A stretch of 64,000 bases of DNA from an uncultured Alphaproteobacteria bacterium. GTDB taxonomy: Bacteria > Pseudomonadota > Alphaproteobacteria > HIMB59 > GCA-002718135. A program made the position numbers and the translations under genes. The stretch lies in contig CACILT010000005.1 of NCBI GenBank assembly GCA_902587565.1, positions 10,461 to 74,460 of the forward strand, given 5' to 3'. The notes under the pieces are model-generated. The model had not been told where the DNA came from. It worked only from the letters and a program-made list of their open reading frames with translations, and made no database searches. Shown in pieces: positions 37,415 through 61,343 of the stretch. Position 1 is the stretch's first letter. The number at the start of each line of letters is the position of its first letter.

Positions 37415-37416
37415 AA

Positions 37417-38271: not shown

Positions 38272-39200
38272 TACCCTCTATTTCTTTCTAGTCTGATTCT
38301 TGGATCAATAATTCCATAAGTAAAATCTACTATCAAATTTAAAAAAATATACACTGCTGTCATATAAACAACTAGCGCTTGAACTAATGGTATATCTTTT
38401 GCCAAAATAGCTTGAAGCAATAATTGACCAAGTCCTGGTCTTGCAAATACTTCTTCTGTAATTACAGCTCCCGTAATAAGTAACCCAAATTGTATACCAA
38501 GTAATGTTACTGGAGGTATCATTGCATTTCTTAATGAATGTCTTAATACTATTCTATATTTGGATATTCCTTTTGAACGTGCTGTTCTTATATAATCTTG
38601 ATTTAATACATCTACTAAACTTGATCTTGTTAATCTTGCCATTCCTCCAGCAAAAAATAAGCCGACTGTAATAGATGGTAAAATTAAAGAAACAAAGCCC
38701 TCACCTACAATTGGTACCCATCCCAAAGTTGTACCAAATATATAAATCAGCATCATCCCTATCCAAAAACTAGGAAGAGAAATGCCACAAAGAGCAATAA
38801 TCATTGAAAAAGTATCACGCATTGAATTAGGTTTGGTTCCAGCAAATATTCCAAAAAAGACACCAAAAAAAACTCCAAATATTAAACCTCCTATAGAAAG
38901 TTCTATTGTAGGCATCATGTTTTCTTTAATCATTGTTGTTACAGGTTGCCTAGTGAGATATGATTTTCCTAAATCACCCTTAGTTGCATTAATTAAGAAT
39001 GAGGTATATCTCTCAAAAACAGGTTTATCTAAACCTAAATTCTTCCTAACATTTTCTCTTACTTCATCTGATGCGGGTCGTCCGCCAAGCATTAAATTTA
39101 CTGGATCTCCAGGAATAATATTTAGTGTTACAAAAACTACTGTCCAAGCAATGTACAAAGTGGGTATTACAATGAGGAGTTTTTTTATAAAAAAATTCAT
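38271..39200 (-). CDS. ABC transporter permease (DppB/OppB-like)
   Basis: 309 aa. IPGDPV motif and an EAA-like loop (DYIRTARSKGISKYRIV). Confidence 0.9.
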   Translation of the reverse strand: MNFFIKKLLIVIPTLYIAWTVVFVTLNIIPGDPVNLMLGGRPASDEVRENVRKNLGLDKPVFERYTSFLINATKGDLGKSYLTRQPVTTMIKENMMPTIELSIGGLIFGVFFGVFFGIFAGTKPNSMRDTFSMIIALCGISLPSFWIGMMLIYIFGTTLGWVPIVGEGFVSLILPSITVGLFFAGGMARLTRSSLVDVLNQDYIRTARSKGISKYRIVLRHSLRNAMIPPVTLLGIQFGLLITGAVITEEVFARPGLGQLLLQAILAKDIPLVQALVVYMTAVYIFLNLIVDFTYGIIDPRIRLERNRG

Positions 39201-39206
39201 AATTTT

Positions 39207-39230
39207 TTAGCCACCTTTAAAGGTGGCTAA
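39207..39230 (-). promoter_or_regulatory. Intercistronic stem-loop after SBP gene (perfect 24-bp palindrome)
   Basis: ttagccaccttt/aaaggtggctaa: 12-bp arms, in the 44-nt gap between the SBP stop (39245) and the permease start (39200). No U-tract on the transcribed strand. Confidence 0.45.
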
Positions 39231-39244
39231 ATTTAATCAATTAA

Positions 39245-40828
39245 TTATTTTTTTCGTACATCATACATACGCATTTGCCAATTACCATTGGCAAATCTCA
39301 CACCCTCTAAATCAGGATTGTATGCAACTGTTTGTACTTGATCGTGAATTGCAAGAAAAATTGCTTGATCCATTATATGTTTTTGAATTTGCATATATAG
39401 ATCATCTTTAACCTCCTGTGTTTCTGCACTTTCAGCATCTTCAAGAAGTTGATCAAGTTCTGCATTAGCATATCTAGCCCAGTTAAATTTGAATTTACCT
39501 GGTTGTGGAATATTTCTAGAGTGGAAAGGAATAATTAATACTCCTGGATCTAGAGAAACCCATCTAATAACTAGCATATCGTAACCGTTAGCAAAGATTA
39601 ATTCATCTTGTCTTGCTTTCATTACTACTTCAACATTAACATCAAATCCTACCTTGTTTGCATAGCCTTGTATTGCAACACAAGTATCAGGTTCTAGTAA
39701 GCATGGAAAAAATACAGTAAGTTTTTCACCATTTTTTTCTCTAACACCATCAGAGCCCATTTTCCAACCTGCTTCATCTAATAAAGCAGCTGCACCTTCA
39801 GGGTTGTAAGGATAATAATCTTCATTACCACTCCAATAACTTGGTGTTGAGCTACTAATTGGACCAAATGCTGCTTCGGCATATCCAAAAAATAAATCAC
39901 TTGTCATTTTTATTCTATCAAGTGAATGGAAAAATGCTTTTCTAACATTAACATCTTGGAAGACACCAGTAGTTGTGTTCAAGAAAGCTGAGTAAGGTAA
40001 ACCAGATACTGTTCCTGTAACAGTACTTAGATCTCCACTAGAATCAAATCTACGCATATCAAGCGGAGGTACTAATTCTGCGATATCAACTTCACCAGCC
40101 TCTAGAGCAGCAACTCTAGTACTAGTATCTTTAATCAATCTATATGTTAAATTTGCAACTTGAGAAGGACCACTCCCATCCATATATTCAGGAGCCCAGT
40201 TATAATCAGGATTTCTTACTAACTCTACTTTTTTGTTAGCCTCCCAATTTTTAAACATAAATGGTCCAGTACCCACAGGAGCCATTCCAAATCCTTCATT
40301 ACCTAGTTTGTCTAGAGCTGTTGGACTAACAATTGATAACTCTGTTTCTGTAAATGCAGTTATTGCAGATCCATAACGTCTTTCAAAAACTACTTTTGCA
40401 GTAAAATCGTCTATAACAATTGTTTCCTTATAAGGCCCTAAAATATCTACTGCACCTTGTGATCCAGTTTCTGGATCTACAATGCTATCAAATGTTGCTT
40501 TGACAGCTGCAGCATTAAATTTTGTTCCATCATGGAAACTTACATCATCTCTTAAGCTGAATGTATATTCTAACCCATCACTAGAGACATCCCATGATGT
40601 TGCAAGACCAGGATATATATTTCCTTCTGAGTCAGCTGATATTAATTGATCAAACATATTTACAATTAACATTTCTTCATGTCTTGACTGTGTTATTCTT
40701 GGATCTAGTGTTCTCAAATCTGGTCTATCCTCTGCAAAAACAATATCCAATGCGTTCGCAGTATTAATAAAAGAAAGACTTGAGAATATAAAAGTTATAC
40801 CAAGAGCAATTTTTAATAATATTCTCAT
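39245..40828 (-). CDS. ABC transporter substrate-binding protein, family 5
   Basis: Signal peptide MRILLKIALGITFIFSSLSFINTANA. An AAAGGAGA RBS lies upstream. Family-5 features are present (LATSWDVS.DG..YTF.LR.DV.FHDG). Confidence 0.9.
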   Translation of the reverse strand: MRILLKIALGITFIFSSLSFINTANALDIVFAEDRPDLRTLDPRITQSRHEEMLIVNMFDQLISADSEGNIYPGLATSWDVSSDGLEYTFSLRDDVSFHDGTKFNAAAVKATFDSIVDPETGSQGAVDILGPYKETIVIDDFTAKVVFERRYGSAITAFTETELSIVSPTALDKLGNEGFGMAPVGTGPFMFKNWEANKKVELVRNPDYNWAPEYMDGSGPSQVANLTYRLIKDTSTRVAALEAGEVDIAELVPPLDMRRFDSSGDLSTVTGTVSGLPYSAFLNTTTGVFQDVNVRKAFFHSLDRIKMTSDLFFGYAEAAFGPISSSTPSYWSGNEDYYPYNPEGAAALLDEAGWKMGSDGVREKNGEKLTVFFPCLLEPDTCVAIQGYANKVGFDVNVEVVMKARQDELIFANGYDMLVIRWVSLDPGVLIIPFHSRNIPQPGKFKFNWARYANAELDQLLEDAESAETQEVKDDLYMQIQKHIMDQAIFLAIHDQVQTVAYNPDLEGVRFANGNWQMRMYDVRKK

Positions 40829-40971
40829 ATTATCTCCTTTGTTAAGAAAATTAGAAATAGTTTAAATCATTTAGAAATTACAAAAAGTTTAAAATTAGCA
40901 TTTTTGTAATGCTTTTTAGACATCACTCAAAAAACCATATTTTAAAGGATTTTTAAAGAAATTTGTTAGAA

Positions 40972-42210
40972 TTAAATACTATTTTCTAATAGCTTACCGT
41001 CTTTAAAAACTTTTATATTTTTTTTATCGCTTAAAATTTTTATATTTTTTGAAGGGTCACCTTGTATAACAAGGATATCTGCTTTTTGACCCTCTTCAAT
41101 AGTACCCACATTTATTCCTAAAAGTTCACCACCAATTCTAGTTGCAGATATTATTGCTTCCATATTTGTCATACCTCCTTGAACCAAGTATTCTAATTCT
41201 CTGTAGTTCATTTCTCCATGTGGCAGCATAAAACCTGCATCTGTTCCGGTTGCTATTTTAATATTAGATTTAATTGCTTTTTTTAAAGAAACCCATTTTG
41301 CCTCTCTAGATAATTCTAACCACTTCCAATTTTTAGAAGATTTAAATTTTTCGTTTTCTTTAAAATCAAAATTTCTTTCATTGACTAAAAGTGTAGGAAC
41401 ATAAAAAGTATTATTTTTTTTCATCAAATCAACAGTTTTATTATCAAGCCAATGCCCATGTTCAACTGAATGCAATCCACATTCAACTGCTTTTGTGATA
41501 GCAGAACCACCAGAGGTATGAGATGCTACTTTAATATTTAACATTTTTGTAATTCTTGCGACTGCTTCAATTTCTTCGTTACTCATCTCTTGTTTATAAG
41601 GTTTTTTTAGATCATAAGTTGAACTTACACATAAATTTGTTTTAATAAAATCAGCACCTGCTTTTAATTGAGTTCTAACACCTTTAATAAATTCATCTGG
41701 TCCATCACATGGATAAGTCATATCTTTAAAATTTACATGACTCCCCCATCCTGGTTGATCCATATGGCCACCGGTTACTGACAATCCTAGTCCGCAGGCT
41801 AAAATGTTAGGTCCTTTTAATTTATTATTTTTAATCATGTTTCTAATATTAATTGCAACATTTCCTGGAGCATTCATATCTCTAATACTTGTGAATCCAT
41901 AATTTAGATGATCTAATGCAAATGAATAACCTCTTAAAGCTTGAGCTCCATAATCAAGATCAGCAGACTCTGCTCTAAATGATCTATTATTTGTTATTCC
42001 TGAGAATGCCAAATGAACATGGACATCAACCATGCCAGGCATAACCACTTCTTTGTTAAAATTATAAACCTTGTCACCTTTTTTATCTTTAAAATTTTTT
42101 AAATCTAAAACTTTTGTAATTTTTCCATTTTCAATTATGATACATTTGTTTTCTAAAATTTTTTTACTTACACCATTTATTAGTTTTTTGGTTTTAATTA
42201 TTTTTCTCAT
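40972..42210 (-). CDS. Amidohydrolase-superfamily metal-dependent hydrolase (COG1228-like)
   Basis: MPGMVDVHVHL (HxH), internal His residues and a GTDAG motif. Paralog of 52781..54016. Confidence 0.85.
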   Translation of the reverse strand: MRKIIKTKKLINGVSKKILENKCIIIENGKITKVLDLKNFKDKKGDKVYNFNKEVVMPGMVDVHVHLAFSGITNNRSFRAESADLDYGAQALRGYSFALDHLNYGFTSIRDMNAPGNVAINIRNMIKNNKLKGPNILACGLGLSVTGGHMDQPGWGSHVNFKDMTYPCDGPDEFIKGVRTQLKAGADFIKTNLCVSSTYDLKKPYKQEMSNEEIEAVARITKMLNIKVASHTSGGSAITKAVECGLHSVEHGHWLDNKTVDLMKKNNTFYVPTLLVNERNFDFKENEKFKSSKNWKWLELSREAKWVSLKKAIKSNIKIATGTDAGFMLPHGEMNYRELEYLVQGGMTNMEAIISATRIGGELLGINVGTIEEGQKADILVIQGDPSKNIKILSDKKNIKVFKDGKLLENSI

Positions 42211-42217
42211 ATCTATA

Positions 42218-42964
42218 TTAATTCAATTTATATTTATGCTTAATTTTTTTTGTTAATTGCCAAGCATCAATATATTTATTATTTATAACACTTTTTGTTT
42301 GTACTCCTAAATGAAGAAACGCTGGTGAAATTAAATATGGATCTTTCCATATTTTTCTCTTTTCATCTGAATAAGTTTTTTTACTCATAGAAGTTTTAAT
42401 AGGAGTTCCAGGAGTTATTGTATTTACAAATACATTATATTTTTTGCATTCTTCATATAGAGACCTACTTAATCCTTCAATCCCAAATTTTGAGGCACAG
42501 TATGCAGTTTCATCTAATCCACCAAACTTAGCAGCTCTGCTAGATACATTTATAATGGAACCTTTTTTATTTTTTTTCATAGAAGGGGCAATAAGTTTAC
42601 AGCTTATAAAAGTACCAGTTAAATTTACATCGATAATTTTTTTCCAAAAATCAATTGTACTTTTTTCAATACTTTTAAAATCAATAATACCTGCACAATT
42701 AATAAGGACATCAATTCTTTTAGATTTTTTTAATATTTTTTTTACAATCAAACTCATCTTTTTGTAGTTCTGAACATTACAATTATGAAACTCAAAATTT
42801 TTAAATTGTAAATTTAAACTTTTATTATTTTTATTATCAATACCATATACAATCGAACCTCTCTCTAAATATGCTTTGGATACTGCATGTCCAATCCCAC
42901 TGGAAGTACCTGTAATAAAAACTTTTAAATTTTTAAAAGTACTATGTTGCAGCTCTACCACCAT
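42218..42964 (-). CDS. Short-chain dehydrogenase/reductase (SDR)
   Basis: TGTSSGIGHA cofactor motif, NCAG, and catalytic YCASK (YxxxK). Confidence 0.85.
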   Translation of the reverse strand: MVVELQHSTFKNLKVFITGTSSGIGHAVSKAYLERGSIVYGIDNKNNKSLNLQFKNFEFHNCNVQNYKKMSLIVKKILKKSKRIDVLINCAGIIDFKSIEKSTIDFWKKIIDVNLTGTFISCKLIAPSMKKNKKGSIINVSSRAAKFGGLDETAYCASKFGIEGLSRSLYEECKKYNVFVNTITPGTPIKTSMSKKTYSDEKRKIWKDPYLISPAFLHLGVQTKSVINNKYIDAWQLTKKIKHKYKLN

Positions 42965-43706
42965 CCACTAAAAGACCTACGCCTGTTATAAAAGATGACA
43001 TATCAGATGAAAGAAAAAGAACAGTTTGGGCTAATTCATATGGACTCGCAACTCTTCCTAAAGGTGTAATCGTTTTCCATTTACTAATAAGCTCTTTTTT
43101 ATTTTTTGTTTTTTTTAAATTTCTTTCATTCATAGGAGTATCTATTACTCCGGGACAAACAGCATTTACTCTTATATTATTTTTTGCATACTCAATAGCC
43201 AAGACTCTTGTGAGTGACATCACTCCTCCTTTTGAAGCTGCATAACTAAGATTGCCACCTACATTTGCAAAAGCACTTATTGAACTATTATTCACAATTG
43301 AACCTTTTTTATTTTTTAACAAAATAGGTAAGGCATGCTTACAAGATAAAAATATTCCCTTAAGATTTATATCAATAATTTTTTCAAATATTTTTATATT
43401 TAATTTATGTGATGGAGTAACTGCTTGTTCTATACCAGCATTATTAAAAACAGTATCTAAAGTTTTAAAATTTTTAGTTACATATTTGTATAAATTAATA
43501 ATATCTTTTTCCTTTGATACATCAGCTTTTACAAAATAAGTTTTCAAACCTTTTTTATGAAGCTCCTTTTGAGTTTTTTCACCCTCATTTTTGTTTACAT
43601 CACAAAAAATAACTGTTGCACCCTGTAATGCAAATGTTTCTACTGTAGCTTTTCCAATACCAGTTGCTCCACCAGTTATTACTGATATTTTATCTTTTAA
43701 AATCAT
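42942..43706 (-). CDS. Short-chain dehydrogenase/reductase (FabG-like)
   Basis: TGGATGIGKA, NNAG, YAASKGG and PGVIDTPM motifs. Confidence 0.88.
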   Translation of the reverse strand: MILKDKISVITGGATGIGKATVETFALQGATVIFCDVNKNEGEKTQKELHKKGLKTYFVKADVSKEKDIINLYKYVTKNFKTLDTVFNNAGIEQAVTPSHKLNIKIFEKIIDINLKGIFLSCKHALPILLKNKKGSIVNNSSISAFANVGGNLSYAASKGGVMSLTRVLAIEYAKNNIRVNAVCPGVIDTPMNERNLKKTKNKKELISKWKTITPLGRVASPYELAQTVLFLSSDMSSFITGVGLLVDGGRAAT

Positions 43707-43845
43707 ATTTGTAAGTTAATTAAAATTCAAAAATAAATAAATAAACAAATTGTATAGTTGTTGTTGACATTTTGTATACACTTTAAATGAATTACCATTA
43801 TGTAATACTTTAAAAAAGCTAAAAAATAGTATTTACTAAAATAAT

Positions 43846-44946
43846 ATGTACGACCTAAAAAAACATTTTCTAGCTGATAAAAAAATTATTTTATCAAAAA
43901 TTGAAAATGTCCTTAGCAAAGGTGTTTTGGAAATGGGTGAGGAGGTAGAGAAATTTGAAGAGAATTTTAAAAAATATTGTAATGTTAAATATTGTGTAAC
44001 TGTATCTTCTGGATCTATGGGGTTACTTTTAGCCCTTAAAACTTTAGACTTAAAAAAAAATGATGAAGTTATAACTGTATCTAATTCTGACATTCCAACA
44101 AGTCACGCAATTACTCTTGTTGGAGCAAAAATTAAATGGGTTGATATTAATGAAGATTCTTTAAATATTGATGAGAACAAAATCGAAAAAAATATAACAA
44201 AGAATACCAGGGCAATCTTACCTGTGCATTTATTTGGAAATCCATGTAATATTTCGAAAATATCATCTATTGCAAAAAAACATAAATTAAAAATTATTGA
44301 AGATGCGTGCTTGGCAACTGGTGCAGAGTACAAAAATAAAAAAATTGGTTCATTAAGTGATTTAACAGTTTTTAGTACTAATCCAGGTAAAATATTAGAT
44401 GGTATAGGCCCAGGTGGTATTATTACAACTAACAGTAAAAATTTGTATCTTCAGTTACTTCAGCTTCGTGATTATGGAAGAAAAGAGAGGCCTAAAAAAT
44501 GGCCAGTAAAATCTTATACAATAGGTTATAATTCAAAATTAAGTACAATAAGTGCCGCAATTCTTAATATTAGATTAGAAAAACTTGATGAATATATACA
44601 AATTAGAAATTATAACGCAGAACTGTACAAAGAAATTTTATTCTCTAAAAAAATAAAATTTCAAAAAACTCTTAAAGATGCAAAATCCTCCTGGAGAAAT
44701 TTTCCAATAAGAATAAAAAATAGAAATAAAATATATGATAAATTAAATTCTATAAATTCATTAGTAAAACTCAATTATTTACCGCCTAATCATCAAGATG
44801 AATGTTATAAAAATTTTAAACATAATTTTGATTTAAAAATTACAGAAAAAGTTAATTCTGAGATTCTAAATCTTCCATGTCATCAATATATGACAAAAAA
44901 TGAAATTGAAACTTTATCAAATCATCTACTAAATCTAATTAATTAG
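43846..44946 (+). CDS. DegT/DnrJ/EryC1/StrS-family PLP-dependent aminotransferase
   Basis: FE..F..Y...YCV.VSSGS..L, ILPVHLFGNP, and a PLP-Lys region FSTNPGKIL. 366 aa. Confidence 0.8.
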   Translation: MYDLKKHFLADKKIILSKIENVLSKGVLEMGEEVEKFEENFKKYCNVKYCVTVSSGSMGLLLALKTLDLKKNDEVITVSNSDIPTSHAITLVGAKIKWVDINEDSLNIDENKIEKNITKNTRAILPVHLFGNPCNISKISSIAKKHKLKIIEDACLATGAEYKNKKIGSLSDLTVFSTNPGKILDGIGPGGIITTNSKNLYLQLLQLRDYGRKERPKKWPVKSYTIGYNSKLSTISAAILNIRLEKLDEYIQIRNYNAELYKEILFSKKIKFQKTLKDAKSSWRNFPIRIKNRNKIYDKLNSINSLVKLNYLPPNHQDECYKNFKHNFDLKITEKVNSEILNLPCHQYMTKNEIETLSNHLLNLIN

Positions 44947-46855: not shown

Positions 46856-47019
46856 CTAATTACAATTTGCACAACACTGGTCGACCCAATGTCCTGGCTC
46901 TACTTCAATCAAACCCATTTCAATATTACCTCCTTTACAATCTATACCAGGGTTTGGACATCGTGTTCGAAAAACACAACCTGAAGGAGGATTAATAGGA
47001 CTGGGAATATCACCTTTAA
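46856..47019. repeat. 164-bp direct repeat, copy 2 (3' end of ATPase gene)
   Basis: See copy 1. The offset between copies is 11280 bp. A third, diverged copy lies at about 47818-47990. Confidence 0.9.
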
Positions 47020-48814: not shown

Positions 48815-50206
48815 TTATCTTATTGGAGATACAAAATTATTCATATTTCTATTCCTATAAAATTTTTTTCCATCATAAACCACTTTTCCATTAACTATAG
48901 TTTTATTTATCTTTCCTTTTATTTTTTCCCCAAAATATAGATGAGCACAGTTTTTTCCTTTTGAAACAAGGGTATTTCTATCCACAGTCCATTTCTTATT
49001 CATATCTAAAATAACTATATCTGCATCAGATCCTCTTTTAATTAAACCTTTATTTGGAAAAATATTAAATCTTTTTGCCGGATTAATACACATCAGTTCA
49101 ATTACTTTTTCTAATTTGATTTTTTTTTCTGAAACAGCTTTTAGCATAAGTGGTAACATTAATTCACCACTAGGCGCACCTGGAGGAGCTTTAAGAAAAT
49201 TTTTTTCCCCCTTTATTTTCTCATTGTATGAAAAAGAAGCATGATCAGAGGCTATAATATCAAGAGTTTTATTTTTAAGAGCTGACCATAATTTTTTTTG
49301 ATCTTTTTGTTTCCTTATTGGTGGATTAATTTTTCCAAATGGACCTGATTTAATTACATCTCTTTCATTTTTAAATAAATAGTGTGGACATGTTTCCGCA
49401 GTTATACTCTGACCTTTACTTTTAAATTTAGAAATTACTTCTAAAGATAATTCTGAAGTCACATGAGCAATATGAATTTTAGTTTTAACAATTGAATTCA
49501 ACCTTAGTATCTTTTCAATTGCACTTGCTTCTACAACAGCAGGTCTCATAGCATTATGTATTGCTGGATTATTTTTTTTAAAATTTTTTTGATTTTTCTC
49601 AAAATGATCAAGTAAATTCTGATCTTCAGCATGAAATATTGTCGTTAAATTTGATTTTTTTGCATGTATTAATGCTTTGAGAATATTTTTTTCTTCAGTA
49701 AAACACAATCCTTCAAATTCACTTTTTCTATCAAGTGGAGGAGCAATTGTAAAAACTTTAAAAGCAATAGCTCCACTATTTATTAATCCATTTAGATTTT
49801 TATCATTGAATTTTCCTAAAGCAGGAATCATAGCAAAATTAATGTAAGTATTTTCATCAAAATGTTTTTTTCTATGGTTGAGCACCTTAGCATTTGACAT
49901 GCACGGATTACTTATAGGCATTTCAAAAAGTGTAGTTATTCCACCCTTTGCGGCGGCTTTAGTTTCACTTTGAACTGTACCTCTTTGAGGAAATGATGGC
50001 GCTCTAACATGAAAATGAATATCAATTATTCCAGGAATAACAATTTTTTTATCAGCATTGATAATTTTTTTGGACTTAAATGATTTTATATTTTTTGTTA
50101 GCTTAAAAATTTTACCATCTTTGATTACAATATGGTTTTTTTTAAATTTATTTTCCTCAAAAACTTTTCCATTTTTTATAATCAAATCACAGTTAGTAAT
50201 CATCAT
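48815..50206 (-). CDS. Cyclic amidohydrolase (allantoinase / hydantoinase / dihydroorotase-like)
   Basis: PGIIDIHFHVR (HxH), GGITTLFEMP, AFKVF (carboxylated-Lys region), FHAED, HIAHVTS, ASDHA. 463 aa. Confidence 0.85.
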   Translation of the reverse strand: MMITNCDLIIKNGKVFEENKFKKNHIVIKDGKIFKLTKNIKSFKSKKIINADKKIVIPGIIDIHFHVRAPSFPQRGTVQSETKAAAKGGITTLFEMPISNPCMSNAKVLNHRKKHFDENTYINFAMIPALGKFNDKNLNGLINSGAIAFKVFTIAPPLDRKSEFEGLCFTEEKNILKALIHAKKSNLTTIFHAEDQNLLDHFEKNQKNFKKNNPAIHNAMRPAVVEASAIEKILRLNSIVKTKIHIAHVTSELSLEVISKFKSKGQSITAETCPHYLFKNERDVIKSGPFGKINPPIRKQKDQKKLWSALKNKTLDIIASDHASFSYNEKIKGEKNFLKAPPGAPSGELMLPLMLKAVSEKKIKLEKVIELMCINPAKRFNIFPNKGLIKRGSDADIVILDMNKKWTVDRNTLVSKGKNCAHLYFGEKIKGKINKTIVNGKVVYDGKKFYRNRNMNNFVSPIR

Positions 50207-51627
50207 TCAAAAATTTTTAGTTCTTTTAATGCTTTTGCAACTCCATCAAGATTTGACAGTTTCATAGATGCATAATTTGGCGACAACACAATCCCTTTTC
50301 CTCCAGCATTATACGTTGCTAAAACTGATCTATAAGCAATATCTGGTGTACAGATTGCTTGTTCTTTTGATGATCGAGGTGCATCAATACCAATACCCAT
50401 ATATACTTTAGATTCACCATCAACACCTCTAACTGCATCCGCACATTGAGTATAAATATATGTATCTGGATCTAATCCTCTTTCTATTAGATTATTTAAG
50501 CTAGTTTCATTAATTCCTAAAATTTTAGAAAAAGATGAAACCAACTCAGAATTAGATAATTCATTTAAAATTGTTTTTCCAAATATGTTTATTTCTCTGT
50601 GGAATATTTCACCAGATTGATGTTGATAAGTTATAGGCTTTACCCAATCCGAATAATCTACCTGTTCTTTCCAAGGCCACTGTATTTTTCTAATAAAATT
50701 AAAATGATTTCTATTCCAAACGTTTAATCCAAAAGACAAATTAGGTTTGATCCATTTAACTAAACCATAAATTTCTTTATCTAAGTCTTTATTTCTTTTA
50801 AGCCAAAATTTTTCCCACTCTAAAATTTCAGGTTTATCAAATAGTATTCTAAAAAATTCAATTAAGTTTCCATCAACAAAATTTTTTCCATCCAATGTTT
50901 TTTGAAAGAACTCATATAATGACAACAAAGAGTCTCTTATTTTTTCAATATTTAAATTAAAAGTTTTGGCTTCTAGTAAAAAATCTTCTGAAAAATCACC
51001 AGGTGCATTTCCTTGAAATAACTGATCTAGAGGTGAATATCTTTCATTACACCACATAACGCCATCAATATCATAATTAGCAACTTGATCTTCAATCATT
51101 GATAAGATCCAATTTCTATAATTTTTATTACTTGTAGAAGGTGATTTGCTAATTTTTCCAAAGACATCTACTTCCATACATTGAACTAAATTTGGAATGT
51201 CTACTCCTGTAGCCGAGCCATGACCTGCATAATTGAAAAATGGTTCCATTAATTCAATAAAAATTTTCATTCCTCTTTCTCTTGCTTTAGGAATAACCAT
51301 TTTTAAAATATCTTTATTTTTCATTTCTTTGTCTTGGGCTTTAAAATCTTTTATAAAAGTTTTATTATAAAATTTGGGATCTGGATCAAAATATGCTCCA
51401 CCTTTCATTGAAAATGGTTCTGGAATTCCATGATCTGGCCAACCATCTATTTCCCAAGACACTGATCTTCCTGATTTTAATCCAAGCCATGAAACAGTCC
51501 CAATTAGTAGAACATTTACACCAACACGTTTTTGTAAAGTATCCAATACATTATCAATTCCCTCATCAATAAATGAAATTGGACTTATTTGAATTCCAAC
51601 AAATTTATCTTTTTCTTTTTTAATCAT
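50203..51627 (-). CDS. Hypothetical protein (474 aa), family not recognised
   Basis: Clean ORF with 4-nt overlaps to both neighbours in the operon. No TM segment or signal peptide. YDIDGVMWCNER is a possible barrel beta4-NE motif; this is weak. Confidence 0.6.
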   Translation of the reverse strand: MIKKEKDKFVGIQISPISFIDEGIDNVLDTLQKRVGVNVLLIGTVSWLGLKSGRSVSWEIDGWPDHGIPEPFSMKGGAYFDPDPKFYNKTFIKDFKAQDKEMKNKDILKMVIPKARERGMKIFIELMEPFFNYAGHGSATGVDIPNLVQCMEVDVFGKISKSPSTSNKNYRNWILSMIEDQVANYDIDGVMWCNERYSPLDQLFQGNAPGDFSEDFLLEAKTFNLNIEKIRDSLLSLYEFFQKTLDGKNFVDGNLIEFFRILFDKPEILEWEKFWLKRNKDLDKEIYGLVKWIKPNLSFGLNVWNRNHFNFIRKIQWPWKEQVDYSDWVKPITYQHQSGEIFHREINIFGKTILNELSNSELVSSFSKILGINETSLNNLIERGLDPDTYIYTQCADAVRGVDGESKVYMGIGIDAPRSSKEQAICTPDIAYRSVLATYNAGGKGIVLSPNYASMKLSNLDGVAKALKELKIFE

Positions 51628-52781
51628 CTTAAAAAATTATTAATCCTTGTCATTGACTCTTCTATTTTTTCAAGAGGTTGTAAATAAGACAAACGTATAT
51701 ATTTATCTTCTTCATCGCCAAACAAAGTACCAGGAAACATAAGAACACCTGTATTAATAAGTAATTCCTTACAAAAAGTTGAAGCAGTCATATTTGAATT
51801 TGATACATTTGTATAAATATAAAAAGCACCTCCTGGATCACCATATGTAAAACCAATATCACTAAGGGCCTTCATGCTAAACTTTCTTCTTTCATTATAT
51901 TCATTTTTCATTTTATTAAACTCTTCTTGAGGACCATCTAAAGCAGCTAAAGCTCCATATTGAGAAAATGTACATGTATTTATTGATAAGGCATGTCTTA
52001 TTTCTGTCATTTTATTTATAATATCTTTTGGACCTGCAATATATCCAACTCTCCAGCCAGTCATAGCATAAGTTTTAGAAAAACCATTTAGTGTTAATGT
52101 TCTTTCCTTCATTTTTTCAAGTGAACCAATTGATAGATGCTCATGCGAATCATAAATTAAGTCAGCATAAATCTCATCTGATATTACAATTAAATTATTA
52201 TCTATTGCTATCTGAGCAATTTTTTTAATATTATTTGGAGGTGTTACAGCTCCTGTAGGATTATTTGGTGAAACAAGAACAAGCAACTTAGTTTTTTTAG
52301 TAATTTTTTGCTCAATTAATTCTGGCATTAATGCAAAATTATCTTTTTCGTATGTGTGAACAGGTACAGGTTTAGCATTACACATCCTTACTGTTAAATC
52401 ATATGTAGTAAATCTTGGTGAGGTAATTAAGACTTCATCATCTGCTTTTAATAATGAAATCATTGCGAGAGCAATACTTTCTTGAACACCAGCTGTGATA
52501 ATTATTTCATCTTCAGAATAATCTAAATTATATTTTAGCTCAAAATTTTTAGATATAGATTTTCTCAATTCTGGCAGTCCAGTTGGAGGTGTGTAATGAT
52601 GTTTGTTTTCATCAAGGGCTTTTTTCGCAGCCTCAACTATATGTTGTGGTGTGTGAAAATCTGGATCTCCTCTTCCTAAAGCTATTACATTATCCATACC
52701 CGAAGCTATTTTTAAAAGATCTGATCTTAATGTCTCATCGTCTAGTGATATTTCTTTAGATTTATTAAAAACTATGCTCAT
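51624..52781 (-). CDS. Class I/II PLP-dependent aminotransferase (AspC-like)
   Basis: NPNNPTG, DEIY, and PLP-Lys region NGFSKTYAMTGWRVGY. Paralog of 59701..60864. Confidence 0.9.
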   Translation of the reverse strand: MSIVFNKSKEISLDDETLRSDLLKIASGMDNVIALGRGDPDFHTPQHIVEAAKKALDENKHHYTPPTGLPELRKSISKNFELKYNLDYSEDEIIITAGVQESIALAMISLLKADDEVLITSPRFTTYDLTVRMCNAKPVPVHTYEKDNFALMPELIEQKITKKTKLLVLVSPNNPTGAVTPPNNIKKIAQIAIDNNLIVISDEIYADLIYDSHEHLSIGSLEKMKERTLTLNGFSKTYAMTGWRVGYIAGPKDIINKMTEIRHALSINTCTFSQYGALAALDGPQEEFNKMKNEYNERRKFSMKALSDIGFTYGDPGGAFYIYTNVSNSNMTASTFCKELLINTGVLMFPGTLFGDEEDKYIRLSYLQPLEKIEESMTRINNFLR

Positions 52782-54016
52782 TATATTAATCTACTTCCAT
52801 GAATATAAACTTGTTTTACATTAGATAAGTCATCTATATTTTCATCAGGTTTGCCTTGTACAATAATAAGATCTGCATCTTTACCAATTTCAATTGATCC
52901 TAATTTGTCTTCAATTTTATTTACTTTTGCTGCTCTATAAGTAGCAGATTGAATAGCATCTAAATTATCTTTAACTACACCAAGATCAATCATAAACTTC
53001 ATTTCAGGAACTATAGCATCATGTGGTACAACTGGTGACCCTGCATCTGTTCCAAAAATTATATCAATGCCTGCTTTACTTGCTTTAACAAGTGAATCAA
53101 ATCTCGATTTATCTTTAACAATTTTTTGTCGTTCTTTTATTTTCCATTCAGGAATATTATACTGTCTTGCAATTTCTTCCTTACTTTGCATTACTACTGG
53201 TGAAAAAGTTGTACATATTGGAATATTTTTTTTTGCAACTTTTTCAATTGTTGCATCTGTCATAGGCCCCCCATGTTCAATACAATCTATTCCAAAATCA
53301 GTAACTCTATTAATTGCTGCATCAAAAGTAGCATGTGCGGTAATATATAATCCATTTCGATGAGTCTCATCGATAACTGCCTCTAATTCTTCATCAGTAA
53401 ATTCAAGAGTATCATGGCACGCCATAATTTTAATTAGATCTGCACCACTTCCAACTTGTTCTCGTACTGCTCTTCGCATTTCATCAGCTCCAGAAGCTTC
53501 ACGACAACACCAATATGTATGTCCTGCAGTTTGTACTATAGCTTCTCCACATATTTTTAATCTTGGACCTGGATATATACCTTGTTCTATTGCTTGCTTA
53601 GCAAAAATATTAGACTTGTTCATTCCTAAATCTCTTACAAGAGTTACACCTGCCCTCAATGATTTCAACATATTCGCACAAGATTTATAAGCTGAAATTT
53701 CAGATGGATCATCAAGTGACTGCTGAGCTAAATCATGTGTTCCATCCCAAGCAAGATGGGCATGCGAATTCATTAGTCCAGGTAAAATTGTATGATCCTT
53801 AAGTTCTAAAACTTTTTTGGAATTTGCGCTACTGTCTAAATCAGATTGAGAACCTGCTTTTATTATTTTACCATTATCTATTTCGACAAATCCATTTTCA
53901 ATTACTTTAAGAGATTTAGTTTCAATTACCCTGCATTTAAATAATATGTTCTCTTTTTGTAAATCAAAAAGTGGTTTAATTATTTTTCTAAATTTCCAAG
54001 GTGCTGCTTCTGGCAT
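52781..54016 (-). CDS. Amidohydrolase-superfamily metal-dependent hydrolase (COG1228-like)
   Basis: LPGLMNSHAHL (HxH), ITAHA, IEHG and GTDAG motifs. 411 aa. Confidence 0.85.
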   Translation of the reverse strand: MPEAAPWKFRKIIKPLFDLQKENILFKCRVIETKSLKVIENGFVEIDNGKIIKAGSQSDLDSSANSKKVLELKDHTILPGLMNSHAHLAWDGTHDLAQQSLDDPSEISAYKSCANMLKSLRAGVTLVRDLGMNKSNIFAKQAIEQGIYPGPRLKICGEAIVQTAGHTYWCCREASGADEMRRAVREQVGSGADLIKIMACHDTLEFTDEELEAVIDETHRNGLYITAHATFDAAINRVTDFGIDCIEHGGPMTDATIEKVAKKNIPICTTFSPVVMQSKEEIARQYNIPEWKIKERQKIVKDKSRFDSLVKASKAGIDIIFGTDAGSPVVPHDAIVPEMKFMIDLGVVKDNLDAIQSATYRAAKVNKIEDKLGSIEIGKDADLIIVQGKPDENIDDLSNVKQVYIHGSRLI

Positions 54017-54028
54017 AAATTTTATCCT

Positions 54029-55222
54029 TTAGTTTAAGTTTATAATTCTATGATCAATACTTTTATCTAAAAAGCTTGATATTTGTTTTCCATTATTTAC
54101 GCCCACAATCATTGAGCTAATAGTTCTATATCCATCAATATTAGGTCTATAAATACCTGGCTCATTTGAAAAAATCATATTTTTTTTTAATATGGTTTTA
54201 TCTCCAGGCGATAACCAAGGAGCTTCATGTCCTTCAAATCCCATACCATGTCCTATGCGATGTCTCACAAATTCGAAATAACCACTTTCCTTGTATATTG
54301 CTGTTGCAATTTCATTAATATTTTCACATTCAGTTCCTTCTTTAAGGTTTTTAATTACCTCATCATTAACTTCTTTCATTGTTTTTATAATATTCATTTG
54401 ATCATGACTTGGCTCACCAAGAATAAAAGTTACTCCAGATTCAGCGTATAAACCACCAACACAAGCTCCAACACCACAAATTAATGTTTCATTTCTTTTT
54501 GGAACTCTGCTTAATGATTTGCCATGAGGAAATGCTCCTCTTGGTCCTGAATGAATAGTGGCTACTACATTACATGGTGTTTCATCAAAATCAGCCGGTA
54601 AGTTTTTTAACATTTCTTTTTTTGCTTCTTCAGTACAAATTTTCACTAATTCTCTTTCATTTGTTTCGCTATTGATCAATTCCTTCCCATTTTCTTTTAA
54701 ATATTCAAGGGTTAAATCAGCATACTTTGCTGCTTCAGTAATTATATCGATCTCTTCTTTTAGTTTTTGATATCTGAAATAATTTATATTGACTTTATAA
54801 TCTAGTATTTCAAATCTGTTTTTGAGTAATTCTATAATATCTATATTATTTATGTCTGTACCAATTTTTTTTTCATTAATATTTTGAGCCATAAATGAAT
54901 AAGGATTTATCTTTCCTGGATATTCTTCATAGATTAATATTTCATCTATAATTGTGTTTTCTGAATTTTCTTTTTCTAATAGAGGAATAAACAATTTACT
55001 TTTATTTTCTTTACTTAAAAAAAAACCTGATGGTCTTTCGTTAGTTACATAAAAGAAACCTGTAAAATAAAAAATATTTGCAGGGTTAGTAATAAGAAAT
55101 CCATCTAGATCTTTTTCTTCTATTAGTCTGAGCAACATTTTTCTTGTCTGATTATAAAAATTATTACTTAATGGTTTTATTTCTTTAAATTCATTCATTT
55201 TATTAAATTTTAAGTTTATCAA
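54029..55222 (-). CDS. M24-fold (creatinase/prolidase-like) hydrolase with degenerate metal site
   Basis: A creatinase_N-like N-terminal half precedes a pita-bread C-terminal half (HRIGHGMGFEGHEAP, FSNEPGIY). The positions of the first Asp and last Glu metal ligands appear substituted (CGVGA; RTISS). An alternative start is the Met at 55198. Confidence 0.78.
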   Translation of the reverse strand: MINLKFNKMNEFKEIKPLSNNFYNQTRKMLLRLIEEKDLDGFLITNPANIFYFTGFFYVTNERPSGFFLSKENKSKLFIPLLEKENSENTIIDEILIYEEYPGKINPYSFMAQNINEKKIGTDINNIDIIELLKNRFEILDYKVNINYFRYQKLKEEIDIITEAAKYADLTLEYLKENGKELINSETNERELVKICTEEAKKEMLKNLPADFDETPCNVVATIHSGPRGAFPHGKSLSRVPKRNETLICGVGACVGGLYAESGVTFILGEPSHDQMNIIKTMKEVNDEVIKNLKEGTECENINEIATAIYKESGYFEFVRHRIGHGMGFEGHEAPWLSPGDKTILKKNMIFSNEPGIYRPNIDGYRTISSMIVGVNNGKQISSFLDKSIDHRIINLN

Positions 55223-56258
55223 TATTTAAATCTTTTGCTAAAATGTTAAAAGAATCTATTACTTCACAATCAATTAGTATTCCTTTTTCTAATTTTTCTT
55301 TAACTCTTTTATTCTCAAGATCGCCAGGAACTAAAATTTCATCAAATCCAGGTCTAAGTGGCAATTTTTTAAGCGTATCAACAAAATCATTTATGCGTGA
55401 ATAGAAATCAGAAATTTCCATAAACCACTCTATATTTATCGCTGTTAATGAATGAGAAACATCTAGTTTTTTTGGATCGGAGTAAGGTATTAATCCATAT
55501 CCACCACCGCTTATAACTCCTGTTAAGATATCAGTCATAAACGATAAACCATAACCTTTATATTTTCCAATACCTAATAAAAAACCATCCATAGCATCAG
55601 AAGGATTGGTTGTTTCTTCACCTTCTTTAGTGAGAGCCCAATCGTTTGGCATTGGTATTTGCTCTCTTTCATGCCATCTCATCATTCCTTTGCCAGCTGT
55701 TGTTAATGCTATATCTAAAATTAAAGGATAACCTCTATTAGTAGGACAAGAAATACCCCATGGATTTGTTCCAACACCTCCACTTCTAGATCCCCATGGG
55801 GCCATTTCGGGTCCTGCATTTGTATACGCAATTCCAATACAATTTTTTTTTGTTGCTCTTACTGCATGAACTGAACTAGAACCAAAGTGAGTTGAATTTT
55901 TTATAATTACTTGACCTATGCCTTCATTCTTTGCTTTTGTAATCGCAATATCCATACATTTAGATGCTTGTACTGTTCCAATTCCATTTTTTGCATCTAC
56001 CAAAGCTAAGGAAGAACTTTCTTTTAGAATATCTAAATCAATATTTATGTTTACTTCTTTATTTTTAATTCTTTTGTAATATGTTGTTATTCTTTGAACC
56101 CCTTGACCTTGACCGCTATGAAATCTCAGTTCTGAAAACATCAAAGCGTCAGTAAAAATTTTTGCATCTTCATTTCTTAATCCCATTGCTAAAAAAGAAT
56201 TAAGTACAAAATTTTCTAAATTTTTAAAGTTGACTAATGTCATATCTATATTTTGCAT
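55203..56258 (-). CDS. Ldh2-family (malate/L-lactate/ureidoglycolate dehydrogenase type 2) oxidoreductase
   Basis: 351 aa. HFGSSS, NPWGI, AGKGM and KGYGLSF motifs are typical of the Ldh_2 family. Confidence 0.85.
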   Translation of the reverse strand: MQNIDMTLVNFKNLENFVLNSFLAMGLRNEDAKIFTDALMFSELRFHSGQGQGVQRITTYYKRIKNKEVNINIDLDILKESSSLALVDAKNGIGTVQASKCMDIAITKAKNEGIGQVIIKNSTHFGSSSVHAVRATKKNCIGIAYTNAGPEMAPWGSRSGGVGTNPWGISCPTNRGYPLILDIALTTAGKGMMRWHEREQIPMPNDWALTKEGEETTNPSDAMDGFLLGIGKYKGYGLSFMTDILTGVISGGGYGLIPYSDPKKLDVSHSLTAINIEWFMEISDFYSRINDFVDTLKKLPLRPGFDEILVPGDLENKRVKEKLEKGILIDCEVIDSFNILAKDLNIDKLKI

Positions 56259-56262
56259 AAAA

Positions 56263-57141
56263 TTATTTTTTAAATTTTAAATAATTTACAATATTTGCGT
56301 TACTGTTTAATTTTGGAATTCCATCATTTGTTTTTGAAGACATTAATATAGTAAGACCCGGTCCATAACCGGCTCTTGGACCATTAGTTTGACCTACAAT
56401 ACCTATTGACCAAGCTTTTCTTAAGAAACCATGTTGATAACTGCTATCATAATTTTCTACGTATACAAAGTCACCCAAACGCAAATTATTAAGTTTATAC
56501 TTTTTCATTTCATTTAGATCTGTTGTTTGAATGTGTAAAGAACCTGATTCACTTGTTAATCCTGAACCAGCTCCAACTAAGTGCTCTGGTATGATGTGTG
56601 TGACTGGTATGTTTAGTTTTTTATTTTTAATCTTGATATTCATTTTATTAAAAATTTGAGGTGATAAACTTTTGCAGAAAATATTTTCAAAATTTTTTAT
56701 TTTTAAACCTACGCCCAATGACTTTATTAAAATTTTATCATTAATTGAAATCCTCTCCCTTACTTTTTTTTCGAAATGTATAATTATTTGTTCAGAGAAT
56801 CTACCTGACTTGCCAGATACAAACCCAACTGAATTTTTAGCTTCACCATTCATTATAATTGCTTCATTACCAACACATGATAAAATATTTAAACCTCTGT
56901 TACCTCCTTCACTAGGATATTTAATAGAAACACCTGGATGAATACAATCAGCTTCCCAACCAAATGCAGAATCGCCAACAGATACATTATGAACTATGGA
57001 TCCCCATGTAGGTAAAAGAAAAGGAATACCGTCAGAGTCTAAGCGGTACGGTTCAGCAGGCAAACCTTGGAAATTTGGTTGACACACAGATCCCATTACA
57101 CTGACATTAACTAATAAATTTTCGTTAGTTTCTATCTTCAT
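56263..57141 (-). CDS. Uncharacterised protein, tandem paralog B (292 aa)
   Basis: Shares VGD[SN]AFGW..D...PGVSI, GN[EK]AI...GEAK, G[AS]G, LGD and GPG[IL].I[LM] blocks with 57138..58001. Possibly DUF4438-like; that is from memory and unverified. Confidence 0.65.
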   Translation of the reverse strand: MKIETNENLLVNVSVMGSVCQPNFQGLPAEPYRLDSDGIPFLLPTWGSIVHNVSVGDSAFGWEADCIHPGVSIKYPSEGGNRGLNILSCVGNEAIIMNGEAKNSVGFVSGKSGRFSEQIIIHFEKKVRERISINDKILIKSLGVGLKIKNFENIFCKSLSPQIFNKMNIKIKNKKLNIPVTHIIPEHLVGAGSGLTSESGSLHIQTTDLNEMKKYKLNNLRLGDFVYVENYDSSYQHGFLRKAWSIGIVGQTNGPRAGYGPGLTILMSSKTNDGIPKLNSNANIVNYLKFKK

Positions 57142-58001
57142 ATTTTTATTTTTAATAAATTTTTGATGTTTGCTTTTTTATTAATTTTCCAACTTAAATC
57201 TTTTTTTTTGCCTGTCATTATAGTCATAATTCCAGGACCGTGACCTGACATTACAGAATCTCCATGAATGCAAATTGCAATGCTAACATAATCTTTTTTA
57301 TATGATCTTCCCCACCTGTGATCAGCATGATTTATAGCGATTAAATCACCAAGTTTCATTTGATCAATTTTTAATTTTTTCATTAAGGCTCGATCACCAG
57401 ACATCAGATCTTGATCTACGTATTCAGAATTCAACTCTGCTCCAGATCCCATAATACGTATTGGTAATTCGATTGCGACATCGACTATTAATTTTTTTTT
57501 AACAATTTTTAAAAATAAAGATTTTAAAAGTTTTGGATCAATTTTTTTAATTTCAATATTTGGAAAATCTAATAATTTTAATCCTCTACCATGAGTTATG
57601 ATATCAATTTGATCACCTATGCAAATCTTATCTAGAATTTTATTTTCGAAATGTATTAAATTTCTTGCATGCTCCCCAGTCACTATGCCAATTGCACCTT
57701 TAGCTTCACCCGATCTAACTATAGCCTTATTGCCAGTGCATACCAAATAATGCAAAGCAAAATGCTCATTAGGATTTTCAGAGTCTATCGAAACACCTGG
57801 TTCAACGTGATCTCCAGCCCAACCAAATGCATTATCTCCTACTTTAATATTATTTACTACACCAAACATTCCTGGATAAATCACAGCCTGTCCATCATTA
57901 TTTGGAATATATCCAGGATTTTTAAAAGAGGGTTGCGTTGCAAAACCCCCAATTGACATTTTTATTAAATTTTTCTCATTAGTTTTTAAATTTGAAATCA
58001 C
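57138..58001 (-). CDS. Uncharacterised protein, tandem paralog A (287 aa)
   Basis: First gene of the minus-strand operon. Overlaps paralog B by 4 nt (ATGA). No TM segment or signal peptide. Confidence 0.65.
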   Translation of the reverse strand: MISNLKTNEKNLIKMSIGGFATQPSFKNPGYIPNNDGQAVIYPGMFGVVNNIKVGDNAFGWAGDHVEPGVSIDSENPNEHFALHYLVCTGNKAIVRSGEAKGAIGIVTGEHARNLIHFENKILDKICIGDQIDIITHGRGLKLLDFPNIEIKKIDPKLLKSLFLKIVKKKLIVDVAIELPIRIMGSGAELNSEYVDQDLMSGDRALMKKLKIDQMKLGDLIAINHADHRWGRSYKKDYVSIAICIHGDSVMSGHGPGIMTIMTGKKKDLSWKINKKANIKNLLKIKI

Positions 58002-58166
58002 ATTGAGAGGAATATCTTGTTTAATTTAAATAAAGAATAACAAAATTGTCATTACAGTGTTGATAAAATGTAATCTAAAAAATACTCGTATATTGCAAAA
58101 TAATCACCACCAAAATGATAAATTATCTATTTCTTAAATTATAAAAACAATTTAGATACGATTTTT

Positions 58167-60864: not shown

Positions 60865-61343
60865 ATGCCAAATTAAAAAATGAGGTTTTAGAAATAAAAC
60901 ACATGGCATTTGCTGTAGAAGATATTGAACAATCACTAAAATATTATAAAAAATTTATGGGCGTATCAAATGATATAGAAATTCAAGATATGCCAAAATC
61001 ACGTACAAGAGTTGCTGTTTTTAATATTGGAGATATAGAATATCAACTCTGTCAATCACAAGATCCTGATGGAAGATTTAATAAATGGATAAAAGAAAGA
61101 GGAAGAGGTGGCTTGCACCATATTTGTTACGTAGTTAAAAATTTAGATGAGTCAATAAAGGTAATGACAGACGAAGGTGCTACTCTTAGGGAATGTAAGG
61201 CATGTAAAGTAGTTGGAAATCATCCTCACCCTGAAGGTTTTATTGCATTTTTAGATAATGAGGTTGATAATATTGAAGTAGAATTAATGCAAGTTTACAC
61301 AGATCAAGAATTAGAAAAATATAAATCTTATCAAGGAATATAA
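60861..61343 (+). CDS. VOC/glyoxalase-family protein (methylmalonyl-CoA-epimerase-like), paralog of 31947..32438
   Basis: IKHMAFAVEDIEQSL, GLHHICYVVKNLDESI, and the shared C-x-A-C...HPHPEGF segment. Confidence 0.75.
   Translation: MNAKLKNEVLEIKHMAFAVEDIEQSLKYYKKFMGVSNDIEIQDMPKSRTRVAVFNIGDIEYQLCQSQDPDGRFNKWIKERGRGGLHHICYVVKNLDESIKVMTDEGATLRECKACKVVGNHPHPEGFIAFLDNEVDNIEVELMQVYTDQELEKYKSYQGI

Follow-up and report, generated by a model that had tools for sequence, protein, structure and literature searches.

What do two adjacent, mutually related genes at the head of a string of catabolic genes do together, and could their products be the two subunits of one enzyme? The question is raised by a 64,000-nt stretch of DNA from an uncultured alphaproteobacterium (contig CACILT010000005.1, positions 10,461 to 74,460; hereafter the window, with a GC content of ~30%). 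On its minus strand a gene for a 287-aa protein with a GTG start (57138..58001) is followed by a gene for a 292-aa protein with an ATG start (56263..57141). The two products, both members of the family DUF4438, will be named A and B hereafter, after the A-type and B-type subfamilies in which they fall. The reading that we favour, and to which we give an even chance, is that A and B make up an obligate two-subunit enzyme within a catabolic cluster, A being the catalytic subunit and B a non-catalytic partner. An earlier sequence-only reading of this DNA had described two proteins of these lengths that overlap by ATGA and are paralogous over their full length at roughly one-third identity, and both statements hold. 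That is, the open reading frame coordinates and the sequence show that the stop codon of A (TGA) and the start codon of B (ATG) lie in a shared ATGA (57138..57141, minus strand, within AAAATATGAAGATAG), an arrangement typical of translational coupling, and BLASTP aligns the two proteins over 289 columns with 36% identity and 57% positives (E 1e-55). The paralogy thus spans the full length and is beyond chance. The motif blocks quoted earlier (VGDxAFGW..D..PGVSI, C.GN.AI, GSG/GAG, LGD and GPG) were all found in the comparison of A with B.

The same reading had tentatively named a DUF4438-type family, and domain scans confirmed it. A matches the N-terminal domain PF14505 with 151.4 bits (profile positions 1-135 of 135) and the C-terminal domain PF20999 with 135.6 bits, and B matches them with 152.5 and 115.5 bits, respectively, the Pfam gathering scores being 24.9 bits for PF14505 and 27 bits for PF20999. 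By these scores and by their fold, A and B are full-length DUF4438 members. In a sequence search of the PDB both matched TM1086 of Thermotoga maritima (E 3.6e-60 for A, 4.5e-57 for B), and because the alignment with TM1086 starts at residue 4 of A, the GTG start is favoured over the internal Met14. AlphaFold2 models, built with diverse alignments, reached a mean pLDDT of 96.2 for A and 92.8 for B and were matched by Foldseek to the TM1086 structure 3DCL with E 2e-36 and TM 0.93 for A, and with E 5e-34 and TM 0.92-0.95 for B. Beyond TM1086, the next matches of the models in the PDB had E values of at least 0.008 and TM scores of at most 0.21 for A and of ~0.2 for B. Both proteins are therefore predicted to have the TM1086 fold, which is without another structural relative in the PDB. 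The NCBIfam scan returned 0 families for A and B, so that neither a curated functional model nor a named solved protein was found among NCBIfam and PDB entries; the assignment to a characterised enzyme family that would have contradicted the sequence-only reading did not emerge, TM1086 itself being uncharacterised.

TM1086 was a structural-genomics target, with 5 chains in PDB entry 3DCL and 30 chains in 3N99, and its asymmetric unit exceeds 1 MDa according to a crystallisation-methods paper (PMC2661377). That paper was the only one in which TM1086 turned up in our literature search. The search found no paper mentioning DUF4438; a literature match for 'PF14505' was discarded, as it names another family and looks like a misprint. 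The family is small, with 766 representatives (E <=0.001, 50%-identity clusters) out of 1.84 billion, and no annotated DUF4438 homologue was found among 72,556 plasmids.

The most telling property of A and B is that they occur together. A first scan of genome contigs with the A/B alignment used low-complexity, Lys-rich patterns and yielded only close relatives of the window (16 loci, labelled MarineAlpha5 and Pelagibacteraceae), in which A and B were paired in 15 of 15 cases. Over the length of protein A, the match between the window and the single-cell genome AG-916-I08, from a marine alphaproteobacterium not in culture, was 100%. Diverse homologues were collected by a search of 50%-identity representatives, by two profile searches, from the encoding contigs and by a metagenome scan, which was queried with a B-type alignment and gave 80 loci (GC content 37-73%). 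Upstream sequence was missing in 17 of these 80; in all of the remaining 63 an A-type gene lay immediately upstream of the B-type gene on the same strand, and a lone B was seen in 0 of the 63. With a profile built from distant B-types, roughly a thousand B-type proteins were recovered, their sources being Chloroflexi/Anaerolineaceae, Dormibacterota and metagenome bins. Among five distant B-type loci the A-type gene was directly upstream in four, and in the fifth (L025) B stood alone, its neighbouring genes being split into fragments. The order was A then B in every pair, and among 62 distant pairs the two genes overlapped by 4 nt in 21 and by 1 nt in 3, and were separated by 0-40 nt in 27. Pairs are carried by Alphaproteobacteria, Chloroflexi and Dormibacterota, comprising marine and soil bacteria.

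A neighbour-joining tree was computed from 183 sequences. In it, the 50 A proteins from paired loci formed one clade and their 50 B partners another, each together with the three representatives assigned to it (P0122, P0124 and P0133 as A-like; P0129, P0143 and P0158 as B-like). The tree carries no bootstrap support, and this monophyly is indicative of two ancient, separate subfamilies. Distances among A proteins closely mirrored those among their B partners (r = 0.92, against a maximum of 0.15 in 500 permutations), and A and B were about as far from each other (distance 1.20) as A was from the single members of the family (1.28). The single clades, the mirrored distances and this near-equality together indicate one ancient duplication, after which A and B would have been inherited or transferred as a unit. 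The rates at which A and B evolve are similarly low (mean distance 0.71 within B vs 0.67 within A), so that B appears to be under selection rather than decaying. That A and B are functionally coupled is, in our judgement, very probable.

The obligate pairing sets A and B apart from the TM1086-like DUF4438 proteins of Clostridia, Atribacteria and other bacteria. The latter have the same PF14505 + PF20999 architecture, the same length and the same fold (TM 0.92-0.95, root-mean-square deviation 1.4-1.5 Å, 35-40% identity), and they share with A the motifs VGDxAxGWxxDHxEPGVS, CxGN, a GKHGG-like motif, MGSGxG, LGDxV and GHGPG, but they are encoded by single genes in variable contexts, whereas the window has an A+B pair in a conserved catabolic cluster. 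The comparison informs fold and family, not mechanism. Six single-gene loci were used as controls (Zhenhengia, Acidaminobacter, two Atribacteria-like contigs, one Clostridiaceae genome and one 728-kb contig), and in six of six the DUF4438 gene had unrelated neighbours. With the same neighbour-labelling procedure none of the core families of the A/B cluster was found in these six loci; the only labels assigned were an SDR in L019, beside fatty-acid-synthesis genes and unrelated, and one ABC ATPase in L020. Homologues occurring singly and in unrelated contexts, which the sequence-only reading had named as evidence against itself, thus exist in the wider family and were not seen for the A and B subfamilies. 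As a side observation, the single DUF4438 gene is often preceded, on the same strand and at a distance of 20-70 nt, by a gene for a membrane protein (L017, L020, L106 and L108), the upstream gene encoding an EamA protein in two Atribacteria-like contigs, an MFS protein in one case and an Rce1-like protease in Zhenhengia. An EamA gene is also part of the operon in the window.

How the work might be divided between A and B was approached by comparing alignment columns of 53 A-types (50 from paired loci and three representatives), 53 B-types and 77 other representatives. Common to all three groups are many glycines, three hGDxhxh motifs (D56, D130 and D219 in A), C88, N91, N8 and N278; by analogy with small beta-barrels, we read the GD motifs as structural. 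A keeps D56, H65, E67, C88, N91, H111, D130, S186, D196, D198, D219, H246, H254 and N278. Seven of these, namely H65, E67, H111, D196, D198, H246 and H254, are conserved in the other members and present in 100% of the 53 A-types, but are replaced in the B-types; the replacements in B of the window are C66, H68, S112, S201, H203, Q251 and Y259, with A191 as a further one outside these seven. Within the DHxEP motif, the position of H65 holds C, L, M, N or T in B-types and that of E67 mostly H or Q, the Glu being kept in some. H111 (GKHGG) has become an invariant Ser (GKSGRF), D196, D198 and H246 (the His of HGDS) are replaced, and at the position of H254 (GHGPG) 75% of the B-types have Tyr. The polar residues conserved throughout the family are therefore found in A and lacking in B. 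By domain content and fold B is a DUF4438 member, but judged from its residues it is a degenerate one. Each subfamily has invariants of its own in addition. That is, A-types differ from TM1086-like proteins by the invariant H84, Y85, E110, E189, H228 and R232, and B-types by the absence of the His/Asp/Glu set and by the motifs GKSGRF, GAGxGLxSExGxIxIQ and DxDS, most positions of which are invariant or at least 90% conserved.

Residues of the His/Asp/Glu set are also missing in about a quarter of the 77 other representatives, and there the losses are correlated, with Fisher p values of 1e-4 to 1e-10 that ignore shared ancestry and so overstate independence (with kinship likewise ignored, H246-H254 3e-10, D196-H246 5e-8, H65-H254 3e-6 and E67-H111 3e-7). 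C88, N91, D219 and N278 are retained regardless of these losses. Because the losses are correlated while these four residues stay, the His/Asp/Glu residues appear to form one functional unit that is kept or lost as a whole, and the B-types would be one instance of its loss. The degenerate representatives outside A and B (all within P0121-P0270) would be other B-like lineages. P0121 is a single 636-aa open reading frame (L109, 865-2775, plus strand) on a 3.2-kb metagenome contig (JGI), in which a degenerate DUF4438 unit (GDRATFG) is followed by a canonical one (DHVEP). Its N-terminus is hydrophobic and signal-peptide-like. P0121 falls outside both subfamilies, and the fusion is an independent precedent for the pairing of a canonical with a degenerate DUF4438 unit. 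Two other mechanisms were considered for the conserved residues and set aside: pyruvoyl self-cleavage at the G-S of MGSG, and a Ser-His-Asp triad. The reason was the same for both: conservation of the Ser reaches only 57%, and it is absent from many members whose His residues are intact.

From these observations we propose that A and B would combine as subunits into a single obligate DUF4438 complex, an enzyme acting within the conserved catabolic cluster. A would be the catalytic subunit, with H65, E67, H111, D196, D198, H246 and H254, together with S186, as the candidate site, the simplest reading of whose composition is a metal-binding or acid-base active site. B would be an ancient paralogue of the same fold without this site, presenting its own invariant surface (GKSGRF, GAGxGLxSExGxIxIQ) and serving as a structural, specificity-giving or regulatory partner. 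Because B has lost the conserved His/Asp/Glu residues of A, a non-catalytic or specificity-giving role is the likelier one for it. That the two proteins form a physical hetero-oligomer we consider somewhat more probable than the division into a catalytic A and a degenerate B, which could go either way. The hetero-oligomer has strong but indirect comparative support in the 63 of 63 ordered pairs, the mirrored trees and the complementary conservation, and the copy numbers in the TM1086 crystals (5 and 30) are a hint of oligomerisation. The earlier proposal of a hetero-oligomeric enzyme is therefore strengthened as regards the fixed co-occurrence and co-inheritance of its subunits; the notion of two equivalent subunits does not stand, B having lost the conserved set.

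A number of points weigh against this reading. The contact between A and B and the enzymatic nature of either are proposed on indirect, comparative grounds, and the putative metal site in A is read from residue types. The residue-loss tests take no account of phylogenetic non-independence. As the TM1086 copy numbers are multiples of five, the unit could be a pentamer, which would not fit an alternating 1:1 ring; stacked A5 and B5 rings or a similar arrangement would then be needed. The sampling of loci was centred on B-types, so that A-types without a B partner would have escaped it, and the occurrence of single-gene members in unrelated contexts means that the ancestral role of DUF4438 need not be catabolic. 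Since the neighbouring gene products all stay below the NCBIfam equivalog cut-offs, any substrate named here is a guess. Moreover, adjacency and mirror-tree correlation are equally expected of two sequential enzymes encoded in one operon, and the invariant polar residues of B could form a different active site.

The last two points lead to the alternative that survives best, which we regard as possible though rather improbable: A and B could be two separate homo-oligomeric enzymes catalysing consecutive or parallel reactions of the same pathway, the site of B having been newly built from its own invariants. The near-invariance of the GKSGRF, SExGxIxIQ and DxDS motifs and the slow evolution of B would be natural for a second enzyme, and components of this pathway often come in twos, e.g. 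the two aminotransferase paralogues. However, two independent enzymes would not readily account for the absolutely fixed order of A and B, with frequent stop/start overlaps, where all other cluster genes have been shuffled, nor for the loss by B of an entire co-varying set in the manner of other degenerate lineages, nor for the existence of a degenerate unit fused to a canonical one. It is quite unlikely, in our view, that the pair is not enzymatic at all, that is, a scaffold, a storage or sensor oligomer, a ligand-binding assembly or a chaperone serving one of the neighbouring enzymes. In favour of this, no solved enzyme has a related fold, we read the sequence and secondary structure as small beta-barrel units with structural GD motifs, TM1086 crystallised as very large assemblies, and single-gene members lack enzymatic neighbours, several of them directly following membrane protein or transporter genes. 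Against this stand the four His, two Asp and one Glu that co-vary across phyla and are fully conserved in A-types, as is typical of catalytic or metal sites, and the presence of the pair among enzymes in every lineage, with a regulator of the helix-turn-helix (HTH)-cupin type as a separate gene in 3 of 37 loci, the only ones where it was detected. Finally, a functionally redundant tandem duplication without special meaning, which the shared family, length and fold might suggest, is hardly credible and effectively refuted by the identity of only 36%, the separate monophyly of two subfamilies that are as distant from each other as from the single members and co-occur across phyla, and the systematic residue loss.

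With the two-subunit enzyme as the favoured reading, its likely context can be taken from the surrounding genes. In the window, 12 minus-strand genes from 58001 down to 44943 follow one another closely, overlapping by no more than 20 nt or lying at most 21 nt apart, a spacing that fits one operon. A is separated from the divergent gene for an M32 carboxypeptidase by 165 bp (58002..58166), presumably holding the promoters of both cluster arms. The consensus matches that a promoter scan found in this intergenic region were weak and did not outnumber those in shuffled sequence, and an Rfam search upstream of A found no riboswitch or leader element. Neighbourhoods were counted in 37 A-B loci of at least 8 kb. 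At least five gene arrangements were seen among the lineages, the adjacency of A and B alone being invariant, and the conserved unit is a shuffled cluster which includes the divergent M32/aminotransferase/glyoxalase arm. The claim that the pair leads a 12-gene catabolic operon is thus upheld as to the tight packing in the window, and not as to an exact 12-gene unit conserved elsewhere.

The domain scans agreed with the neighbours named in the sequence-only reading (Ldh_2, M24 with Creatinase_N, Amidohydro_1, Aminotran_1_2 and a dihydroorotase-like Amidohydro_1). Directly downstream of B on the minus strand lies a gene for an Ldh_2-family NAD(P)H dehydrogenase (55203..56258; Pfam 314 bits), which is found in 30 of the 37 loci and, among the neighbours of the pair, is surpassed in constancy only by the aminotransferases. 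Its closest solved relatives are an archaeal malate dehydrogenase and L-sulfolactate dehydrogenase (PDB 1v9n and 2x06), and its NCBIfam matches are all under the equivalog cut-offs. The next gene (54029..55222, minus; 16 of 37 loci) encodes an M24/Creatinase_N hydrolase according to Pfam, with an incomplete set of metal ligands. In comparison with a provisional reference sequence of E. coli methionine aminopeptidase, D108 is replaced by Glu and E235 falls in a gap, whereas H171 and E204 are kept. This bears out the earlier description of the metal site as degenerate and fits a creatinase-like or otherwise atypical hydrolase, not a standard prolidase. It is followed by an amidohydrolase-superfamily enzyme (52781..54016, minus; 17 of 37 loci), for which the best model is the Caulobacter-type Xaa-Pro dipeptidase, below its cut-off, and by the first copy of a class I/II, aspartate-aminotransferase-like aminotransferase (51624..52781, minus; Pfam and NCBIfam). 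The aminotransferases of the window are nearest to aspartate aminotransferases. At least one such gene is present in 31 of the 37 loci, and two copies are seen in most loci, generally side by side where the arrangement is not SAR11-like (L022-L024, L028, L031, L033, L044, L054, L060, L066, L075-L077, L091 and L094). These tandem aminotransferase paralogues might likewise be heterodimeric.

Further down the string, a 474-aa protein (50203..51627, minus) had no match in Pfam, NCBIfam or the PDB and was not assigned to a family. It has homologues of 459-487 aa in 15 of the 37 loci, across phyla, and a profile search revealed a faint GHL10/GHL6 glycoside-hydrolase-like similarity in 12 of 14 homologues. 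On this distribution the cluster has, in the 474-aa protein, a second conserved component that is uncharacterised. The next gene product is a cyclic amidohydrolase of the dihydroorotase/allantoinase/hydantoinase type (48815..50206, minus; 20 of 37 loci), nearest in NCBIfam to ErtD, allantoinase and dihydroorotase. It scores 343 bits with ErtD (cut-off 650) and 300-308 bits with allantoinase (300 against a cut-off of 358), and it passes the broad domain model pyrC_multi with 288 bits (cut-off 279), the only such pass among the window neighbours. Two Opp/Dpp-type ABC ATPase genes follow (47818-48807 and 46856-47821, minus; 16 of 37 loci). At the tail of the string are genes for an EamA transporter (45935-46834, minus) and a GFO/IDH/MocA oxidoreductase (44943-45938, minus), neither of which recurred near the pair elsewhere among the 37 loci.

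The divergent arm, on the plus strand, comprises the M32 carboxypeptidase (58167-59708; 13 of 37 loci), the second class I/II aminotransferase (59701-60864) and a Glyoxalase_4/VOC protein (60861-61343; 25 of 37 loci). On the far side of the string, the families of the region 37417..44946 recur beside A-B pairs in other phyla, and its genes are probable cluster members: a DegT aminotransferase (43846-44946, plus; 8 of 37 loci), two SDR genes (42218-43706; SDR in 15 of 37 loci), a second Xaa-Pro-dipeptidase-like amidohydrolase (40972-42210), an SBP_bac_5 binding protein (39245-40828; 15 of 37 loci) and two permeases (37417-39200; OppBC permeases in 14 of 37 loci). An AstE/AspA-type deacylase (15 of 37 loci) and a D-2-hydroxyacid dehydrogenase (11 of 37) also lie near the pair.

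The chemistry of these enzyme families is established, and its application to the present cluster is what we infer. A peptide-like, N-acylated or ureido/cyclic-amide nitrogen compound might be taken up by an Opp-type ABC system and opened or deacylated by the amidohydrolases (dihydroorotase/allantoinase-like, Xaa-Pro-dipeptidase-like, M24, AstE/AspA and M32). The amino acid set free could then be converted into a 2-oxo acid by the two class I aminotransferases, and into a 2-hydroxy acid by Ldh_2, the 2-hydroxyacid dehydrogenase or an SDR. The step of A and B would be a hydrolytic or lyase-type reaction between amide cleavage and the aminotransferase and dehydrogenase steps, a reaction class that is a guess and doubtful.

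The closest known parallels are the ureide and hydantoin clusters, i.e. the AllB/PuuE-AllC-AllD steps of allantoin breakdown, the hydantoinase/carbamoylase systems and the ErtD/ErtE steps for ergothioneine. Like these, the A/B cluster has a dihydroorotase/allantoinase/ErtD-like amidohydrolase and an Ldh_2 protein, a family that includes the ureidoglycolate dehydrogenase AllD. Unlike them, it adds peptidase-like, aminotransferase, VOC and sugar-type genes, and the scores stay below the respective cut-offs (allantoinase 300 bits against 358, AllD 146-156 against 356-496, ErtD 343 against 650). With ureide/hydantoin and N-acyl-amino-acid utilisation there is, as far as such scores can tell, a resemblance in enzyme classes, not membership. 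We know of no described ureide pathway that contains a DUF4438 protein, and the literature search found none. A variant was seen in a Pelagibacteraceae metagenome-assembled genome (L012, 7300-9442, plus strand), where the gene string from Ldh_2 to the Opp ATPases is replaced, after B, by a PuuE-type allantoinase-like gene (351 bits, cut-off 425) and a gene for an M20 amidase of the hydantoinase/carbamoylase family (237 bits, cut-off 204, passed). This genome retains the A-B pair together with the divergent M32/aminotransferase/glyoxalase arm. Its gene content hints at ureide-type chemistry. The idea that A and B are themselves the N-carbamoylase of the pathway is weakened, an M20 carbamoylase-family gene adjoining the pair in this genome.

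As regards architecture, some heteromeric enzymes pair their catalytic subunit with a degenerate paralogue, following a general principle of pseudoenzyme partners. A and B resemble them in the ancient tandem duplication, the fixed order, the apparent translational coupling, and in that one copy keeps the site while the other loses it and yet stays under purifying selection. The likeness is an analogy of genetic architecture only.

DUF4438 has had a crystal structure since 2008, and neither a function nor a literature. Three features appear to be new, as the literature search yielded none of them: the obligate A/B pairing, the uneven conservation of residues between A and B, and the conserved cluster shared across phyla. 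The pairing turns a bare family of this kind into a testable proposal, with a presumed catalytic protein, its key residues, a partner and a set of neighbouring enzymes (Ldh_2, the aminotransferases and the cyclic amidohydrolase). Since the carriers of the cluster include abundant oligotrophic marine bacteria, its substrate may be a component of marine dissolved organic nitrogen; in that case, identifying it would bring both an additional pathway and a new enzyme fold into marine nitrogen cycling. In the boldest form of the proposal, which we put forward tentatively, a metal-dependent A and an ancient pseudo-enzyme B would be an unrecognised kind of enzyme, catalysing the missing step in an undescribed catabolism of ureido, N-acyl or peptide-like nitrogen compounds that is shared by SAR11-like Alphaproteobacteria, marine Chloroflexi, and Dormibacterota and other high-GC lineages found in varied metagenomes. 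Should the pair be non-catalytic, the annotation of a paired pseudo-paralogue system would still be useful. As a candidate for a new two-subunit enzyme the pair is good, though unproven, and it offers a concrete and well-supported starting point for finding enzymes in abundant marine bacteria; function, physical association, catalysis, metal binding, substrate class and reaction are what we infer.

Two minor observations concern the edges of the cluster in the window. The minus-strand region 35576-40828 encodes one full Opp/Dpp-type system, made up of the SBP_bac_5 protein, the two permeases and a fused double ATPase of 612 aa, and the Opp-type ATPase pair inside the A/B operon (46856-48807, minus) is a second one, without permeases of its own. 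On the other side, beyond the glyoxalase gene, a 223-aa open reading frame with a TTG start (61562-62233, plus) covers positions 82-227 of 240 of the NAD-dependent epimerase/dehydratase profile, and may be an N-terminally truncated or mis-started gene.

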